Shown in pieces: positions 7,670 to 13,062 of a stretch of 32,000 bases of DNA (position 1 is the first letter of the stretch; every line of letters begins with the position of its first letter). The stretch comes from an uncultured Chloroflexia bacterium (GTDB lineage: Bacteria; Chloroflexota; Ktedonobacteria; Ktedonobacterales; JADMIN01): assembly GCA_963718915.1 (NCBI GenBank), contig CAVRAI010000004.1, positions 630,001-662,000 on the forward strand, read 5' to 3'. The notes below the pieces were generated by a model. That model did not search any database. It saw only the letters and a list, made by a program, of their open reading frames with translations, and had not been told where the DNA came from. A program made the position numbers and the translations under genes.

Positions 7670-9385
7670 ATGAGTCATCAACGTAACCGACAACATGGGC
7701 GTGAGCAACAACGGACGCGCCATCCCCTGCGCATCGTGCCGCTTGGTGGGCTGGGTGAGATTGGCAAAAATATGATGGCCGTAGAGTACGGCGAGGACAT
7801 CATTATCATCGATGCGGGGCTGATGTTTCCTGATGAGGAGATGCTCGGCGTCGATCTGGTCATTCCCGACACCACCTATCTGAATGATAAACTGGAGCGT
7901 ATTCGTGGCATCTTCATCACCCATGGCCACGAGGATCACATTGGCGGACTGCCCTATGTGCTGCCCCGACTTAATTTCCCACCTGTCTACTCGCTGAAGC
8001 TGACCATCGGCCTGATTGGCGTCAAGCTGCGCGAGCACCGCCAGCTCGACCTCGCGACTCTGAATGAGGTAGATCCGACGACATCGGTGCGCGCGGGACA
8101 GTTCACTGTGAGCTTTGTCCGGGTCAATCACAGCATTCCTGACGCCGTCGCGGTCGTGGTGCGCACTCCAGTGGGCATCCTTGTGCATACCGGCGATTAC
8201 AAATTTGACTACACGCCAGTGGAGCAGCCACCCGCCGATATCGCGGGCCTGGCGCGGCTCGGCGAAGAAGGTGTGCTGGTGCTCTGTGGCGATTCCACCC
8301 GTGTCGAGTCGTCTGGCTTCACGCCGTCTGAGCGTGTCTTGAACACAACATTCGACGAGGTGTTCGCTCATGCGCAAGGGCGCATCCTGATTGCCACCTT
8401 CGCCTCGCTGATCTCGCGGGTGCAGCAGGTTATCAATGCGGCGGAGCAGCATGGGCGTAAAGTCGCGCTGGTGGGTCGCTCGATGGTCAACAATGCGCAG
8501 ATGGCGATTGAGCTAGGCTATCTACGGGTTCCCGCTGGTATGCTGATCCGCGCGGAGGATATTGGCCATGTGCCCGCCAACGAGCTGGCGATCATCTGCA
8601 CTGGAAGCCAGGGCGAGCCAACCTCGGCGCTGACCCGCATCGCCAATGGCGATCATCGGCTGGTGCAGATTCAGCTGGGTGATACGGTCGTGCTCAGTTC
8701 TACGCCCATCGTCGGCAATGAGCGCGCCGTCTCACGCAATATCGATAACCTCATCAAGTTGGGCGCTGATGTGCTTTATCAGGGCAAGCTTCAGGTGCAT
8801 GTCTCGGGGCATGGCAGCCGTGAGGAAGTCAAGCTGATGCTGGCGTTGCTGCGGCCGCGCTATGTGATGCCGGTTCATGGTGAGTATCGAATGCTGGCGG
8901 AGCATGCCAGAGTCGCGGTAGAGATGGGGGTCGCGCCGGAGAATGTTGTGGTGGCGCAGGATGGCGATGTGATTGAGGTCTCGCCAGACAGCGGCATCGA
9001 GATTGTCGATCACGTGCCGTGCGGCAATGTGTACGTCGATGGCCTGGGGGTTGGCGATATCGGCCAGGTGGTGTTGCGCGACCGACGACTCCTCTCCAGT
9101 GATGGCGTTCTCGTCGTGGTGGTCACGGTAGATAGCGATACCGGCGAGCTTGCTGCTGGGCCTGATATCATCTCGCGAGGCTTCGTCTACGAACGCGAGT
9201 CAGAGGGAATACTCGAAGGCGCGCGCGCGGTGGTGGAGCGAGCCATTACGCGGCACACGCAGCAGCGCGGACACGTGGTGGACTGGAATTTCATCAAGAA
9301 CAAGATCCGTGACTCGGTCAGCGAATACGTCTATCAGCAGATCAAGCGCCGCCCGATGATTCTTCCAGTCGTGGTCGAAGTCTAG
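7670..9385 (+). CDS. rnj: Ribonuclease J
   Basis: 571 aa. N-terminal LRIVPLGGLGEIGKNMMAVEY, metallo-beta-lactamase motif HGHEDHIG, beta-CASP region, C-terminal domain. Length and order are typical of RNase J. Confidence 0.95.
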   Translation: MSHQRNRQHGREQQRTRHPLRIVPLGGLGEIGKNMMAVEYGEDIIIIDAGLMFPDEEMLGVDLVIPDTTYLNDKLERIRGIFITHGHEDHIGGLPYVLPRLNFPPVYSLKLTIGLIGVKLREHRQLDLATLNEVDPTTSVRAGQFTVSFVRVNHSIPDAVAVVVRTPVGILVHTGDYKFDYTPVEQPPADIAGLARLGEEGVLVLCGDSTRVESSGFTPSERVLNTTFDEVFAHAQGRILIATFASLISRVQQVINAAEQHGRKVALVGRSMVNNAQMAIELGYLRVPAGMLIRAEDIGHVPANELAIICTGSQGEPTSALTRIANGDHRLVQIQLGDTVVLSSTPIVGNERAVSRNIDNLIKLGADVLYQGKLQVHVSGHGSREEVKLMLALLRPRYVMPVHGEYRMLAEHARVAVEMGVAPENVVVAQDGDVIEVSPDSGIEIVDHVPCGNVYVDGLGVGDIGQVVLRDRRLLSSDGVLVVVVTVDSDTGELAAGPDIISRGFVYERESEGILEGARAVVERAITRHTQQRGHVVDWNFIKNKIRDSVSEYVYQQIKRRPMILPVVVEV

Positions 9386-9469
9386 CGGGCTGGGTAGGCA
9401 GGAGGCCTGTCCCGCGTGTGCGGGCGACGGGTAGCGCGGAGAGGCGTTGAGGCAGCTTGCGCCTGATTG

Positions 9470-9988
9470 CTACGACAGTAACGCCTTTATCTGGGCAGCT
9501 GGCACATACTGTTGCCCGTCGCCCGCGTTCGGGTTGAATACACTCCCGCAGTGCTTGCAGTAGTAGAGCTGATCCCACTTGTCCTTTGCCTTCTGCCACC
9601 GGCGAAACTGGTTTGCGGTCACTCGATGCCAGATGAGGATCCACACGAAAATAGCGCCGGTTCCGATGCCGATGACGAGAAACGCGGGGGGCGTTGGGGT
9701 ATCACCTGGTGGCAGAACCACGATGCCAGCGGTGAGTAGGGCAAACTCCGCGAGACTGGCGAGTGATAAATACCCGAGCAGCACCATCCACCCGATGAGC
9801 TTCCATCCCCATTTGTCGGTGTACTCCGGCTGTGGCGGAGCCGCCAACTGCTTACTCAGCGAGCTCATAACGCTGTATTTCCCTGGTTCGAGGCCTTCGA
9901 TAGTCCCACTACTGACGACAATGCTCACCTTCTGGACATCTTCAGGCTGCGGACAGATAGGGTTCGGACATCGGATTCGCTGATTCAT
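9470..9988 (-). CDS. Hypothetical membrane protein with N-terminal CPNPIC and C-terminal CKHC motifs
   Basis: ATG 9988..9986 preceded by GCAGGAGAC (SD). 172 aa with two predicted TM helices (WKLIGWMVLLGYLSLASLAEFALL, FLVIGIGTGAIFVWILIW). The longer track ORF (to 10294) would run through the tRNA promoter region up to 2 nt short of the tRNA gene. Confidence 0.6.
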   Translation of the reverse strand: MNQRIRCPNPICPQPEDVQKVSIVVSSGTIEGLEPGKYSVMSSLSKQLAAPPQPEYTDKWGWKLIGWMVLLGYLSLASLAEFALLTAGIVVLPPGDTPTPPAFLVIGIGTGAIFVWILIWHRVTANQFRRWQKAKDKWDQLYYCKHCGSVFNPNAGDGQQYVPAAQIKALLS

Positions 9989-10178
9989 CCCGGTCTCCTG
10001 CGCTCTGCTCGCTATTATGTACCAAAACCCCGGCCGTGTGGGCAGATATTGGGCGACGCCAGTCTGTGTGACTGGCTTACTCCCGGCATCCTCCAACACA
10101 TCGCCGTCAGTCTGACGACATTCTACACCAGCAATCAAGCCAGAACTCTTCCCATGCTCATGAGCAGGTGAATGCGTC

Positions 10179-10207
10179 TTGCCATTCCTGGGTGGAGATA
10201 ATATACT
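10179..10207 (+). promoter_or_regulatory. Candidate sigma70-type promoter for tRNA-Glu
   Basis: TTGCCA (10179..10184), 17 nt, TATACT (10202..10207), about 90 nt upstream of the tRNA 5' end. A leader hairpin CTCCCG/CGGGAG lies at about 10267..10285. Confidence 0.3.
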
Positions 10208-10296
10208 ACCTGTGAGCTTTGGCTCTCGCCCTGGGGCATCTGGGCGTGGGGTGCGACCCCTGAACGCTCCCGATTCACGCGGGAGAAATGTCACTA

Positions 10297-10373
10297 GCCC
10301 CTGTCGTCTAGCGGCCTAGGACATCACCCTTTCAAGGTGGAGATCACGGGTTCGAATCCCGTCAGGGGTACCA
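10297..10373 (+). tRNA. tRNA-Glu (anticodon UUC), CCA encoded
   Basis: Cloverleaf folded by hand: acceptor GCCCCTG/CAGGGGT (G1-U72 wobble), D-arm GTCT..GGAC, anticodon stem TCACC/GGTGG, loop CTTTCAA (anticodon TTC), T-arm ACGGG-TTCGAAT-CCCGT, discriminator A, CCA. Confidence 0.9.
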
Positions 10374-10378
10374 TATTT

Positions 10379-10795
10379 ATGCCGATTCCGTCGCTGCTAC
10401 CCAGTGGACACCTTCCTCCAGGTGAATATCCTGCTACTGTTGAAGAGATACTCGCGGCATTTCCTTCGACCACTGTGGAGAGAACCGAACTCAATCAAGC
10501 CTTGCAGGATGTGATACCAGCGTTTGTTAAACTTAAAACAATTGCGCCAGATATGGTACTGTACATAGATGGCAGTTACTTGACGAATAAGACTTCTCCC
10601 GTTGATATTGATGTCCTGATCCTGACTGACGTGCTGGATGAAGTCGAGGTACAGGATTTTCTGAACCAGGAGTGCCCTGTACCAGCCACCTATTTCGATG
10701 TGCATGCCGATCCGTTGAACCGGCGCTACCTTGTCAACGTGTTTACCAGAACCCGCAGCAATCAGCCAAAAGGCATTATTCTGTTGTTGGTGTAA
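10379..10795 (+). CDS. Minimal Pol-beta superfamily nucleotidyltransferase-like protein (LPPG...DGS...DxD family)
   Basis: 138 aa from ATG 10379, 5 nt after the tRNA CCA. The track start at 10337 lies inside the tRNA. Signature YIDGSYLTNKTSPVDIDVLIL equals G-S-x9-D-x-D. N-terminal GHLPPGEY and C-terminal PKGIILL resemble an uncharacterised small NTase family, recalled from memory and not searched. Confidence 0.7.
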   Translation: MPIPSLLPSGHLPPGEYPATVEEILAAFPSTTVERTELNQALQDVIPAFVKLKTIAPDMVLYIDGSYLTNKTSPVDIDVLILTDVLDEVEVQDFLNQECPVPATYFDVHADPLNRRYLVNVFTRTRSNQPKGIILLLV

Positions 10796-10864
10796 ACACG
10801 CATGTCGAGTACTCGGCAAGAAAGCCAGTAATCCAGTGCACGTTGCACGAGAAGAGACAAACCA

Positions 10865-11110
10865 ATGAAAGAGACGCAGCCGCCGATCACTACTGCTGAT
10901 GAGTATGTGGCCTACCAAAAGGCGCTCGAGGATATCAACGCCGAATGTGCGGGACGGGAGCAGGCTGTCTTTCAGGCACAGGGCATACCAGACAAGTTAG
11001 AGCGTGCGCGCACTGCCCTCTTCCGCATGTATCGGATCCGGCAGGGTATCCTTGATGCTTTGGCTGAGTATGAACGCCAACAGTATGCCTCACAACGGAA
11101 AAGCGGATAG
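10865..11110 (+). CDS. Hypothetical small helical protein (candidate partner of the NTase)
   Basis: 81 aa, predicted all-helical with a heptad-like pattern (YQKALEDINAECAGREQAVFQAQ...LFRMYRIRQGILDALAEYERQQ). Purine-rich GAGAAGAGA upstream. Contains no His, so no HEPN Rx4-6H motif. Confidence 0.5.
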   Translation: MKETQPPITTADEYVAYQKALEDINAECAGREQAVFQAQGIPDKLERARTALFRMYRIRQGILDALAEYERQQYASQRKSG

Positions 11111-11133
11111 CATTCGGCCAGTAGTTTTTCGTT

Positions 11134-11201
11134 GTCTAGCGGCCTAGGACATCACCCTTTCAAGGTGGAGATCACGGGTTCGAATCCCGTCAGGGGTACC
11201 A
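11134..11201 (+). pseudogene. 5'-truncated copy of tRNA-Glu (att-like repeat), not a functional tRNA
   Basis: Identical to tRNA positions 10-76. The 5' acceptor strand is replaced by TTTTTCGTT, which cannot pair with CAGGGGT. Confidence 0.85.
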
Positions 11202-11216
11202 GCTAATCAGACGACG

Positions 11217-11246
11217 ATGCCCCTCATCAGTTGAGGGGCATTTTTC
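11217..11246 (+). terminator. Rho-independent terminator downstream of the truncated tRNA copy
   Basis: Stem ATGCCCCTCA (11217..11226) / TGAGGGGCAT (11232..11241), 5-nt loop, then the T-run TTTTT (11241..11245, its first T closing the stem). Confidence 0.75.
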
Positions 11247-11283
11247 GAGGATATCGCGTGCTGGGTGACTCTTGAGAAGAGAC

Positions 11284-11796
11284 TCAGCCTTGCAGGTGAT
11301 GCGCCTCGATCAGACGTGGGACACTGCCGAAGTCCAAATCCAGCCCATACTTCGCGAAGAGCGCCGCGGCCTTTTCAGGATCAGGTAAACCTGCTTCCGC
11401 CGCTGAAAAGAGCGCGGCCATCTCGCGGAAGTAGCCCTCGAATCCGGCGGGCGTAATCACCTCCAGCACGCGCGCGGGTGTATCGCCAGCGTTCCAGAAG
11501 GCATGGGGAATGCCGCGCGGCTTGAAGACCGTCGCGCCCGGCTCGGCGATCAGGACACGCTCGCCGATCTGGATGCCGACCCGGCCCTCGACGACATAGG
11601 ATATCTCGTCCTCATGGGTATGCGTGTGTGTCGGCGCTGCCAAAGCTTTGGGACGAATCGGATGCTCCACCAGCGATAACCGCCCTCCAGTCTGTTCCCC
11701 GCTCACCAGATAACGTACTCCCAGACCCCGAAGCCATACCATCTCACCGCCGTCTGGTTGTATCAGAATGTCTTCGTCATGTCCCTTCGGATCCAT
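11284..11796 (-). CDS. Cupin domain-containing protein
   Basis: Cupin motif PTHTHTHEDEISYVVEG...G...FKPRGIPHAFWN. ATG 11796..11794 is preceded by GGAGG 6 nt upstream. The track start at 11829 adds 11 aa. Confidence 0.85.
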   Translation of the reverse strand: MDPKGHDEDILIQPDGGEMVWLRGLGVRYLVSGEQTGGRLSLVEHPIRPKALAAPTHTHTHEDEISYVVEGRVGIQIGERVLIAEPGATVFKPRGIPHAFWNAGDTPARVLEVITPAGFEGYFREMAALFSAAEAGLPDPEKAAALFAKYGLDLDFGSVPRLIEAHHLQG

Positions 11797-11833
11797 AGCG
11801 CCTCCATCTTCTTTGATTTCACTGAACAATGAT

Positions 11834-11856
11834 GTATACTGATGTACAGAGTATAC
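11834..11856. promoter_or_regulatory. Inverted repeat in the cupin/TetR divergent intergenic region (candidate TetR operator)
   Basis: GTATACT (11834..11840) / AGTATAC (11850..11856), 9-nt spacer containing TGTACA. AT-rich region between starts 11796 (-) and 11907 (+). Confidence 0.4.
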
Positions 11857-11906
11857 TCAGAACATTGGAGTGTTGTCAATATCATGAAACATGGCTGTTC
11901 AATAAA

Positions 11907-12545
11907 ATGACCGAGAAACGCAAATACCAGCAAAAACTGCGCGCCGAACGGCAGGAAGAGACGCGGCGGCGCATCACTGTGGCGACGGTTGCGCTGCACT
12001 GGGAAATCGGGCCGGCACAGACGACGATTAGCGCGATTGCCGAACGGGCTGGCGTGGAACGCCTCACCGTCTATCGCCACTTTCCTGAGGAGCGTGACCT
12101 GCTCTCTGCCTGCCAGCAGCATTTTCGGACGGAGCATCCGCTGCCAGACCCCTCAGCTTGGGCCGCTCTCGCCGACCCGGTGGAACGGCTAAGGACGGCG
12201 CTGACGGCGGTCTACACCTACTACCGAGAGACCGAAGCCATGACAGCGAATATCCTCCATGATTCGTCACTGATGCCAGATCTGGCTGCCATCCTTACTG
12301 GACGCGAAGCCTACGTGGCCGCACTGCATGGGCAATTGCTGGAAGGTTGGGGCATCTCTGACGCGGCGCTTGAAATGGTGAGAGCCGCCATTGGCCATGC
12401 ACTCGACTTCGAGACGTGGCGCTCGCTGGTACGGCGGCAACAGCTCGCCGACGAGGAGGCGGTGGCGCTGATGGCGCGGTTGGTGGCGACGCTCACTGCG
12501 GACGACACAATCCACGCAGGCAATGCCACCATTCCAAAAAGCTGA
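11907..12545 (+). CDS. TetR/AcrR family transcriptional regulator
   Basis: HTH VATVALHWEIGPAQTTISAIAERAGVERLTVYRHFPEERDLL. Start MTEKRKYQQ at 11907 is preferred over 11829, because the first 26 codons are AT-rich promoter-like sequence. Confidence 0.85.
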   Translation: MTEKRKYQQKLRAERQEETRRRITVATVALHWEIGPAQTTISAIAERAGVERLTVYRHFPEERDLLSACQQHFRTEHPLPDPSAWAALADPVERLRTALTAVYTYYRETEAMTANILHDSSLMPDLAAILTGREAYVAALHGQLLEGWGISDAALEMVRAAIGHALDFETWRSLVRRQQLADEEAVALMARLVATLTADDTIHAGNATIPKS

Positions 12546-12546
12546 T

Positions 12547-13062
12547 TTACCAGCGCTCGCGGTGAACCATCTCATCGAGCGGGTTGCGTCCGCCCTGTTT
12601 TGGCGGCGCGCTCAGCACGGTTTTGTCAGCGGGGTAGCCGAACGAGAGCGCCACGTCGCAGCGAAAGCCATCGGGGACGCCGAGAATCGCCTGCGCCTGA
12701 TCGGGATGATAGATGGTGGCGATGACCGAACCAATGCCAAGCTCCCAGGCCGCAAGCTGCATGTAGGACGCCGTCTGGCCGACGTCGAACATGAGCCATT
12801 CGCGCCGCTCCGCGTCGTCGGGCACGACGATGACGACCCCCAGCGCCGCGCCAGCCAGATGGCTCGCGAAGTCGCCCGTCTGTGAGAGTTGTGTGAGTAT
12901 ATCCCTGTCGGTCACGGCGACGAACTGCCAGGGCTGGGTATTCTTGGAGCTTTGTGCGCGCCGACCCGCGTTGAGAATCGTGCGAACCGCATCGTCCGGT
13001 AGTGGGTCAGGTGCGAACCGGCGCACGGATCGCTTAAGGCGGATTGCATCGAGCACATTCAT
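12547..13062 (-). CDS. Nitroreductase family protein
   Basis: LKRSVRRFAPDPLPDDAVRTILNAGRRAQSSKNTQPWQFVAV is the hallmark N-terminal nitroreductase motif. AGGAGG lies 8 nt upstream of ATG 13062. Confidence 0.9.
   Translation of the reverse strand: MNVLDAIRLKRSVRRFAPDPLPDDAVRTILNAGRRAQSSKNTQPWQFVAVTDRDILTQLSQTGDFASHLAGAALGVVIVVPDDAERREWLMFDVGQTASYMQLAAWELGIGSVIATIYHPDQAQAILGVPDGFRCDVALSFGYPADKTVLSAPPKQGGRNPLDEMVHRERW

Follow-up and report, generated by a model that had tools for sequence, protein, structure and literature searches.

The window analysed here is the full 32-kb stretch of Ktedonobacterales DNA (contig CAVRAI010000004.1, positions 630,001 to 662,000), and its subject is a two-gene islet lying at a tRNA-Glu gene. 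Loci of relatives that were compared with the window carry L-numbers. The only tRNA in the window is a tRNA-Glu(UUC) on the plus strand, called by ARAGORN and matched by the Rfam tRNA model at 63.2 bits. Nucleotides (nt) 10306-10373, which are tRNA positions 10 to CCA, recur as an exact 68-nt direct repeat at 11134-11201. The two copies are 828 nt apart from start to start, with 760 base pairs (bp) in between, and the match reaches 71 nt if one mismatch is allowed (10303/11131). The chance expectation for a 25-mer of the repeat is 0.00. The islet and its immediate surroundings contain the following features.

10179-10207, plus strand: putative sigma-70-like promoter TTGCCA-17-TATACT upstream of tRNA-Glu, with the same motif kept in L013.
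10297-10373, plus strand: intact tRNA-Glu(UUC) with an encoded CCA, the putative regenerated target gene (attL side).
10306-10373, plus strand: left repeat copy, tRNA positions 10 to CCA, 68 nt exact.
10379-10795, plus strand: open reading frame 1 (ORF1), 138 amino acids (aa), DUF6932, with a minimal Pol-beta-type nucleotidyltransferase fold.
10865-11110, plus strand: ORF2, 81 aa, a two-helix hairpin and the constant partner of the window's DUF6932 subfamily.
11111-11133, plus strand: element-side arm (P arm) beside the displaced fragment, homologous to the same position in the L013 and L018 islets.
11134-11201, plus strand: displaced fragment of tRNA-Glu (attR side) from position 10 to CCA, lacking a functional 5' acceptor strand.
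11216-11246, plus strand: intrinsic terminator hairpin and U-run, located by fold calculation and homologous to the hairpin after the APH gene in L081.

The displaced fragment reads TTTTTCG at its 5' end, where the acceptor strand GCCCCTG belongs. It receives no ARAGORN call, and its Rfam match is limited to model positions 7-64 (41.3 bits). The P arm next to it keeps an islet-specific T at tRNA position 9. The locus thus has an intact tRNA at one end and a displaced, directly oriented fragment of the same tRNA at the other, as in islands of the Islander type. The tyrosine integrase that such islands carry internally is missing; ORF1 and ORF2 are the only genes between the repeats, and no Phage_integrase match is present in the 32-kb window. 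In Pfam scans covering the islet genes, the genes next to them, and all window ORFs of 180 aa or more, no integrase, excisionase, or transposase appeared, and Rfam found no RNA family in the islet besides the tRNA.

The ATG of ORF1 (10379) lies 5 nt past the CCA of the intact tRNA, with no terminator in that gap. The terminator beyond the fragment has an 11-bp stem followed by UUUUU, with a folding free energy (dG) of -22.9 kcal/mol and z = -4.7. The tRNA-Glu promoter is the sole promoter-like site able to drive the tRNA and, by read-through, the islet genes. The G+C content is 0.45-0.51 over 10400-10900, compared with 0.56-0.62 in the flanks and 0.605 in the whole window, though ORF2 alone is near normal at 0.55. 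A sequence-only reading of this locus had described the intact tRNA, the exact copy lacking its acceptor strand, the AT-richer insert, and the two small genes with no recombinase, and all of these descriptions hold. The neighbouring genes are ordinary chromosomal genes (Ser/Thr kinase, RNase J, nitroreductase, CoA-transferase, a 2-oxoacid dehydrogenase operon, and others).

ORF1 passes the Pfam gathering threshold for DUF6932 (PF22014; E = 1.6e-18; 68 bits against a cutoff of 27) and covers model positions 5-139 of 142. It also matches PADLOC PDC-M63A (E = 3.5e-12) and phrog_9194. The homologue alignment contains an invariant nucleotidyltransferase signature, DGS...DxD, formed by D64, G65, and S66 followed by D76 and D78. 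The AlphaFold2 model has a predicted local distance difference test (pLDDT) score of 84. Foldseek matches of this model to the Pol-beta superfamily (CCA-adding enzyme, Pol beta, and MNT antitoxins) are weak but consistent, with E values of 0.07-0.2 for the MNT antitoxins 7bxo, 7aer, 8xeo, and 1no5. A PDB sequence profile search with ORF1 returned nothing significant, and a literature search found no paper mentioning the DUF6932 family. The public gene call for ORF1 on the source contig (P0007; 100% identity, 58% coverage) apparently spans just the last 80 aa. Since the full 138-aa frame is unbroken and homologues are conserved from residue 1 onward, the annotated start is probably too far downstream.

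ORF2 has no match in Pfam, NCBIfam, PADLOC, or PHROG. It has 27 close homologues, and 26 representatives were found among 1.84 billion proteins. The homologue alignment contains an invariant motif, ALFRMYRIR. The AlphaFold2 model is a two-helix hairpin (pLDDT 92), and a fold search with it returned generic helical hairpins only, with no informative match. Both genes are under purifying selection, with ratios of nonsynonymous to synonymous divergence (dN/dS) of 0.07-0.15. Between the window and L013 the ratio is 0.11 for ORF1 and 0.07 for ORF2.

Toxin-antitoxin modules built on a minimal nucleotidyltransferase include the HEPN-MNT type VII and the AbiEii/MenT-type systems, and the HEPN motif is Rx4-6H. 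The ORF1-ORF2 pair is likewise a two-gene module with a small Pol-beta-fold nucleotidyltransferase bearing GS...DxD. It also occurs in mobile, variable contexts and is the last pair left in a decayed element. It differs from all of these systems in having no sequence match to them at curated thresholds, and from HEPN-MNT in its partner, since ORF2 is not a HEPN protein, lacks the Rx4-6H motif, and in the window copy contains zero histidines. The PADLOC candidate PDC-M63AB is matched in its first component only. Judged by fold and context, the module is probably a toxin-antitoxin-like or defence-like pair.

The nearest DUF6932 homologues are in Ktedonobacterales (Chloroflexota) assemblies. Five lineages, about equidistant from each other at 85-89% nt identity in flanking genes, were compared between tRNA-Glu and a conserved nitroreductase gene. 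The order of features after tRNA-Glu is given below for each.

Window lineage: ORF1, ORF2, fragment (68/68), terminator, cupin, TetR.
L012-L014: terminator-like hairpin, ORF1, ORF2, decayed fragment, APH.
L018: islet of the L013 type, fragment exact over 57 nt, then a 464-aa ORF.
L081-L083: no islet; single tRNA-Glu, then APH, hairpin, cupin, TetR.
L084: terminator and frameshifted ORF2, with no ORF1 and no fragment; then APH.

L012-L014 and L018 are two other species with the islet. Their flanking DNA is approximately 85-88% identical, the islet of the window is 78% identical to theirs at the nucleotide level, and their fragments are progressively decayed. The tRNA-Glu sequence is identical at 77 of 77 positions in L013, L018, and L081. 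L081-L083 have the unoccupied site, with one tRNA-Glu followed by a flank homologous to the flank beyond the L013 fragment. The 20 nt past CCA at this empty site, gctttcattccgcctccgcg, are homologous to the 20 nt past the L013 fragment, ggtatcattccgtctccgcg. The right-hand copy therefore adjoins the original downstream flank. Such a comparison with relatives had been proposed in the sequence-only reading, which expected integration into the 3' end of the tRNA with an unusually small, integrase-less cargo. Both expectations are borne out.

The same reading had taken the right-hand copy to be the original tRNA 3' end because the only good terminator follows it. The conclusion stands on the empty-site flank, but the reason is partly wrong. 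The window terminator is homologous to the hairpin 3' of APH in L081, so it belongs to the downstream APH/cupin region and did not adjoin the tRNA originally, and APH has been lost from the window. In the window a good hairpin does follow only the fragment, but in L013 and L018 a terminator-like hairpin follows the intact tRNA, within the approximately 125-130 bp that separate the tRNA from ORF1. This stretch is absent in the window. A simple scan did not support a promoter within the corresponding L013 arm and found only the tRNA promoter.

The features beyond the islet that frame these comparisons are as follows.

9470-9988, minus strand: conserved 172-aa membrane/zinc-ribbon gene in the left flank, the anchor for finding orthologous loci.
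11284-11829, minus strand: cupin gene (Pfam), in the variable segment 11284-12545.
11829-12545, plus strand: TetR gene (Pfam), in the variable segment directly downstream of the fragment.
12547-13062, minus strand: conserved nitroreductase gene, the first syntenic right-flank gene in all relatives.

The segment downstream of the fragment is a hotspot of replacement. It spans 11206-12546 in the window, 3734-4919 in L013, 1078-2664 in L018, and 2361-3580 in L081 (reverse complement). It holds cupin and TetR in the window, APH in L013 and L084, all three in L081, and the 464-aa ORF in L018. These segments all end at the same nitroreductase gene, and no further tRNA fragments mark them. Two other observations concern the tRNA region. 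The decayed second copy in L018 (1000-1076) is called a full tRNA-Glu by ARAGORN and passes the Rfam gathering threshold with 31.7 bits. Its D-stem is broken, and G-U pairs would make up most of its acceptor stem. Pseudo-tRNAs of this type are likely to be annotated as genes. L012-L014 also contain approximately 340 bp (2171-2507 in L013) upstream of the tRNA-Glu promoter that are extra relative to the window.

Homologues of the module with 67-84% aa identity occur in at least five further contexts. The first is a second tRNA gene; the sequence-only reading had proposed looking for the cargo beside other tRNA genes. In L011 the module (approximately 70% aa identity) has an intact tRNA-Gln(CUG) on one side and, on the other, a perfect 43-nt repeat of the 3' part of that tRNA. 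The repeat begins at the anticodon loop, a canonical crossover class, and the module is inverted relative to the tRNA, opposite to its orientation at tRNA-Glu. L090 has the module next to the same tRNA-Gln, where an IS256-family transposase splits it. The transposase gene (Pfam Transposase_mut) lies between DUF6932 and ORF2 at 8091-10419, and the module is 100 nt from the tRNA-Gln(CUG). The L090 tRNA-Gln with its upstream region is 92.7% identical to that of L011, and the wider flanks are unrelated.

Integrases accompany the module and its family elsewhere. In L086/L087 the module follows immediately after a tyrosine integrase that is truncated to its C-terminal catalytic part (Pfam positions 98-170 of 172). 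Distant DUF6932 genes in Hyphomonadaceae have the canonical layout of tRNA-Asp, tyrosine integrase, DUF6932, and an HTH-M78 protein. This layout without its integrase would give the arrangement in the window. The example in L060 (8280-11736; also L062 and L025; Hyphomonas and Henriciella) consists of tRNA-Asp, a 463-aa tyrosine integrase with DUF6538, DUF6932, and an HTH_3 + Peptidase_M78 protein, and looks like the intact front end of an island with a different DUF6932 partner. No displaced tRNA-Asp fragment was found within 10 kb at loci of this type. L015 also has an integrase adjacent to DUF6932, and more integrases, at distances of 3-6 kb from DUF6932 genes, came up in an iterative hidden Markov model search. 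Inside the islets, tblastn with the L086 integrase fragment as query detected no integrase remnants.

The remaining contexts are free of tRNAs. In L001/L019 the module lies upstream of a glmS ribozyme (65.6 bits; 9590-9756 in L001 and 9560-9726 in L019), the ribozyme of a glmS gene that is transcribed divergently. With neither a tRNA nor a repeat nearby, this makes a third insertion context, unrelated to the others. Other settings without a tRNA are L088, L089, and L091-L094. L091 contains an imperfect direct repeat of approximately 125 nt (9061-9184 and 10167-10291; 86% identity; also in L092 and L093) with a period of 1106-1107 nt. The repeat consists of the 3' end of ORF2 and 48 nt downstream, and it flanks a 79-aa gene on the minus strand, DUF6932, and ORF2. 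Either partial tandem duplication or insertion into an older ORF2 copy could account for it. Homology between contexts is limited to the two ORFs, as expected for cargo, and no shared element ends were found among the tRNA-Glu, tRNA-Gln, glmS-upstream, and integrase-adjacent contexts. For the family as a whole, 63 DUF6932 loci from GTDB representatives were checked for nearby tRNAs and tRNA-derived repeats. Outside the Ktedonobacterales subfamily, only the Hyphomonadaceae loci (tRNA-Asp) and one locus in Myxococcales are near a tRNA, and these have no repeats of 16 nt or more within 10 kb. Linkage to tRNAs is therefore not a general feature of DUF6932.

The islet is approximately 10 G+C points below its hosts, which themselves span 48% to 67% G+C. 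This constant offset suggests long residence with a persistent AT bias. Synonymous divergence (dS) of the islet and of core genes was as follows.

Window and L013: islet dS 0.75 (ORF1) and 1.2 (ORF2); core dS 0.39-0.69.
L013 and L018: islet dS 0.11 (ORF1) and 0.07 (ORF2); core dS 0.38-0.41.

L013 and L018 agree at 72% of the 39 nt that precede the tRNA, at 100% of the tRNA, and at 88-97% (approximately 95%) of the islet. This identity stops exactly at the CCA of the fragment, and the flanks beyond are unrelated. Because this block of identity is bounded by the tRNA and the fragment CCA, and because the dS values are discordant, the islet appears to have been exchanged at least once as a unit delimited by the tRNA repeats. 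L018 is one 5.6-kb metagenomic contig with only 39 nt of upstream flank, and dS values of such small genes are noisy.

The perfect repeat in the window is not proof of recency, because the islet is old and common to at least two other species. The repeat boundaries vary by lineage: the two copies agree from tRNA position 10 onward in the window and from position 22 onward in L018, with three additional mismatches in L013. Upstream of the fragment, the three islets have homologous arms, and all of them share the T at position 9. With islets approximately 22% diverged, a neutral 68-nt fragment should carry several changes, and it carries none. The perfect identity is probably the product of gene conversion from the intact tRNA 828 bp away, or else of a separate integration.

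The islet is probably a decayed remnant, resembling a cis-mobilizable element (CIME), of an element once inserted in the 3' part of tRNA-Glu; it has kept one selected module. The origin by integration into a tRNA gene (tDNA) is read from the intact tRNA and the direct 3' fragment that mark the two ends, a principle set out in the Islander paper (PMC4383910). An element carrying a copy of the 3' portion of the tRNA would have integrated site-specifically into tRNA-Glu by the classical tDNA mechanism. Integrase-mediated insertion of this kind would regenerate an intact tRNA (10297-10373) and leave the 3' part of the original gene displaced to the opposite end (11134-11201). Deletion would then have removed the recombinase gene, while the two-gene module was retained, either selected for or addictive. 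In the window genome a further deletion of approximately 125 bp took the element's own terminator-like region after the tRNA and left ORF1 5 nt past CCA. The resulting transcription unit would consist of tRNA-Glu, ORF1, ORF2, and the fragment, running from the tRNA promoter to the hairpin at 11216-11246. ORF1 and ORF2 are most likely co-transcribed with tRNA-Glu; this is the simplest expectation, because the only sigma-70-like promoter lies upstream of the tRNA and the hairpin stretch before ORF1 is gone.

CIMEs, a term from work on elements of Firmicutes, keep their attachment (att) sites and have lost their integration and transfer genes (PMC5704250, PMC6323972). The islet agrees with this description in having attL-like and attR-like boundaries, formed by direct repeats of its target's 3' end, in having no integrase, excisionase, or transfer genes, and in lying at a site where further segments vary among relatives. 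Its core repeats are intact, but the arm of approximately 125-130 bp beside the intact tRNA, kept in L013 and L018, is deleted. The islet differs from described CIMEs, which are mostly from Firmicutes, in being far smaller (0.76 kb and two genes) and in having no cognate integrase known here. Descent from an integrative and conjugative element (ICE) or an integrative and mobilizable element (IME) is only a candidate; the clues are the truncated integrase by the module in L086/L087 and the distant tRNA-Asp/integrase/DUF6932 layout, and no parent was found. The element is best read as non-autonomous in the manner of a CIME.

With islands found by Islander, the islet shares a regenerated tDNA, a displaced direct 3' fragment, an empty site in a relative, and low G+C. 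It lacks the integrase that is a required Islander filter, and its length is far under that of typical islands. Its identity block of 68 nt begins in the D-arm and is longer than the anticodon-centred or T-stem classes, whereas the 43 nt at tRNA-Gln fit the anticodon class. The ssrA-specific islands of Dehalococcoides are a documented tDNA-type island system in Chloroflexota (PMC3146451). They are also delimited by 3'-end repeats of a small-RNA gene with the islands downstream, their genealogies also conflict with those of core genes, and the region downstream of the gene is also highly variable. Those islands differ in being at least approximately 10 kb long, with a serine-recombinase module and a 20-bp repeat; the islet has no recombinase, a 68-nt repeat, and a tRNA target.

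Several observations weigh against the remnant reading. Islet genealogies conflict with those of core genes, so that a purely fixed, vertically inherited remnant is insufficient and continuing exchange is indicated. At two different tRNAs, and in opposite orientations, no cargo other than the module survives, which would be a coincidence under simple decay if the module were neither addictive nor selected. At 68 nt, the identity block exceeds the usual anticodon-loop or T-loop classes. No full-length parent combining an integrase, the exact module, and a tRNA-Glu att site was found. In IMG/VR, ORF2 is absent, DUF6932 has one distant representative, and the tRNA-Glu 3' sequence has no exact match; neither protein has a match among PLSDB plasmids. 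The PADLOC candidate PDC-M63AB, which is related to the module, had no defence phenotype when assayed in E. coli NILS69 (bioRxiv 10.1101/2024.12.20.629700).

The sequence-only reading had left the choice between a decayed remnant and a miniature element mobilised in trans, and the comparative data narrow this choice in favour of the remnant. That the islet is still mobile, as a miniature non-autonomous element moved by an integrase in trans or with no integrase, is plausible but unlikely. In the latter variant, RecA would loop out the islet as a circle between the 57-68-nt repeats, and a Campbell-type event would re-insert it into the identical tRNA-Glu of a related cell. The near identity of the L013 and L018 islets against a core dS of 0.38-0.41 favours present mobility, as does the block of high identity that begins at the tRNA and ends at the fragment CCA. 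The invariant tRNA-Glu in four species would be a ready homology arm, occupied, empty, and decayed states coexist in a star-like species group, and the repeats are unusually long and perfect in two lineages (57 and 68 nt). Against it, no integrase can be linked to the islet within the visible 32 kb of the genome, and the window copy lacks the arm beside the intact tRNA, which would disable lambda-type arm-dependent excision. The L013-L018 discordance depends on the single L018 contig and its short flank, which could be an assembly chimera, and the islet of the window diverges from the others more than core genes do, with no sign of recent arrival. A stronger form would make DUF6932-ORF2 a minimal selfish cassette for which tRNA genes serve both as landing pad and as promoter, and which still spreads among related Ktedonobacterales without its own recombinase. 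It may move by a trans-acting integrase, or by RecA loop-out and Campbell-type re-insertion with the tRNA identity as a portable homology arm. This form, which draws on the 95% identical islets of L013 and L018, their core dS of approximately 0.4, and their exact boundaries, is unlikely.

Under an ancient tandem duplication of tRNA-Glu, the downstream copy would have lost its 5' end, with the genes inserted later or already lying between the copies. The bases upstream of the L013 fragment, GTTTCGGTT, do resemble tRNA positions 1-9, GCCCCTGTC, given C-to-T changes, and the second copy in L018 is a full tRNA by ARAGORN, with an Rfam match over model positions 1-71. A duplication should, however, leave the same arrangement in all relatives, with a second copy derived from a complete gene, and empty and decayed states are found instead. 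The flank at the empty site matches the post-fragment flank, the same module is bounded by a 43-nt 3' fragment of tRNA-Gln, integrases lie beside the module elsewhere, islet and core genealogies conflict, and islet G+C is below that of the flanks. The empty site and the tRNA-Gln case largely refute this explanation, which is very unlikely. Direct insertion at tRNA 3' ends by the module itself, with the DUF6932 nucleotidyltransferase and its partner acting as the mobilising enzymes, would fit between-context homology of exactly two ORFs, the targeting of two different tRNAs, and the Pol-beta/CCA-enzyme-type fold of ORF1, with its weak scores. No tRNA or fragment is near the module in L001/L019, L086, L088, L089, or L091, however; it is oriented differently at tRNA-Glu and at tRNA-Gln, conserved element ends are absent, family members have tyrosine integrases or their remnants beside them, and distant DUF6932 loci are mostly not tRNA-linked. 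Self-mobilisation is thus extremely improbable. An assembly artefact, raised beforehand as a possible source of the 68-nt identity, has nothing for it beyond the general possibility and has a negligible chance of being correct, as independent assemblies from other samples and projects (L012-L014 and L018) have the same architecture at the orthologous locus with diverged sequences. An integron cassette was also considered and rejected. Only 5 nt and 23 nt of non-coding sequence flank the genes, no attC-like element is present, and homology is limited to the ORFs.

The decayed tDNA island or CIME is already well known as a phenomenon, and the islet is a small, tidy example of it. The residual interest lies in the survival of the module, its apparent fusion to the tRNA transcription unit, and the hint of exchange between species without an integrase. 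One small species group documents the whole life cycle of the element, from the empty site through the full islet and a streamlined islet fused to the tRNA unit to a frameshifted remnant. Island finders that require an integrase miss such islets, and the pseudo-tRNA fragments and the N-terminally shortened ORF1 call are open to mis-annotation. The module, a DUF6932 nucleotidyltransferase with a very rare 81-aa partner, recurrently survives as the last cargo, at two tRNA genes. Because it persists in this way, the pair can reasonably be considered a candidate for a new Chloroflexota addiction or defence module.

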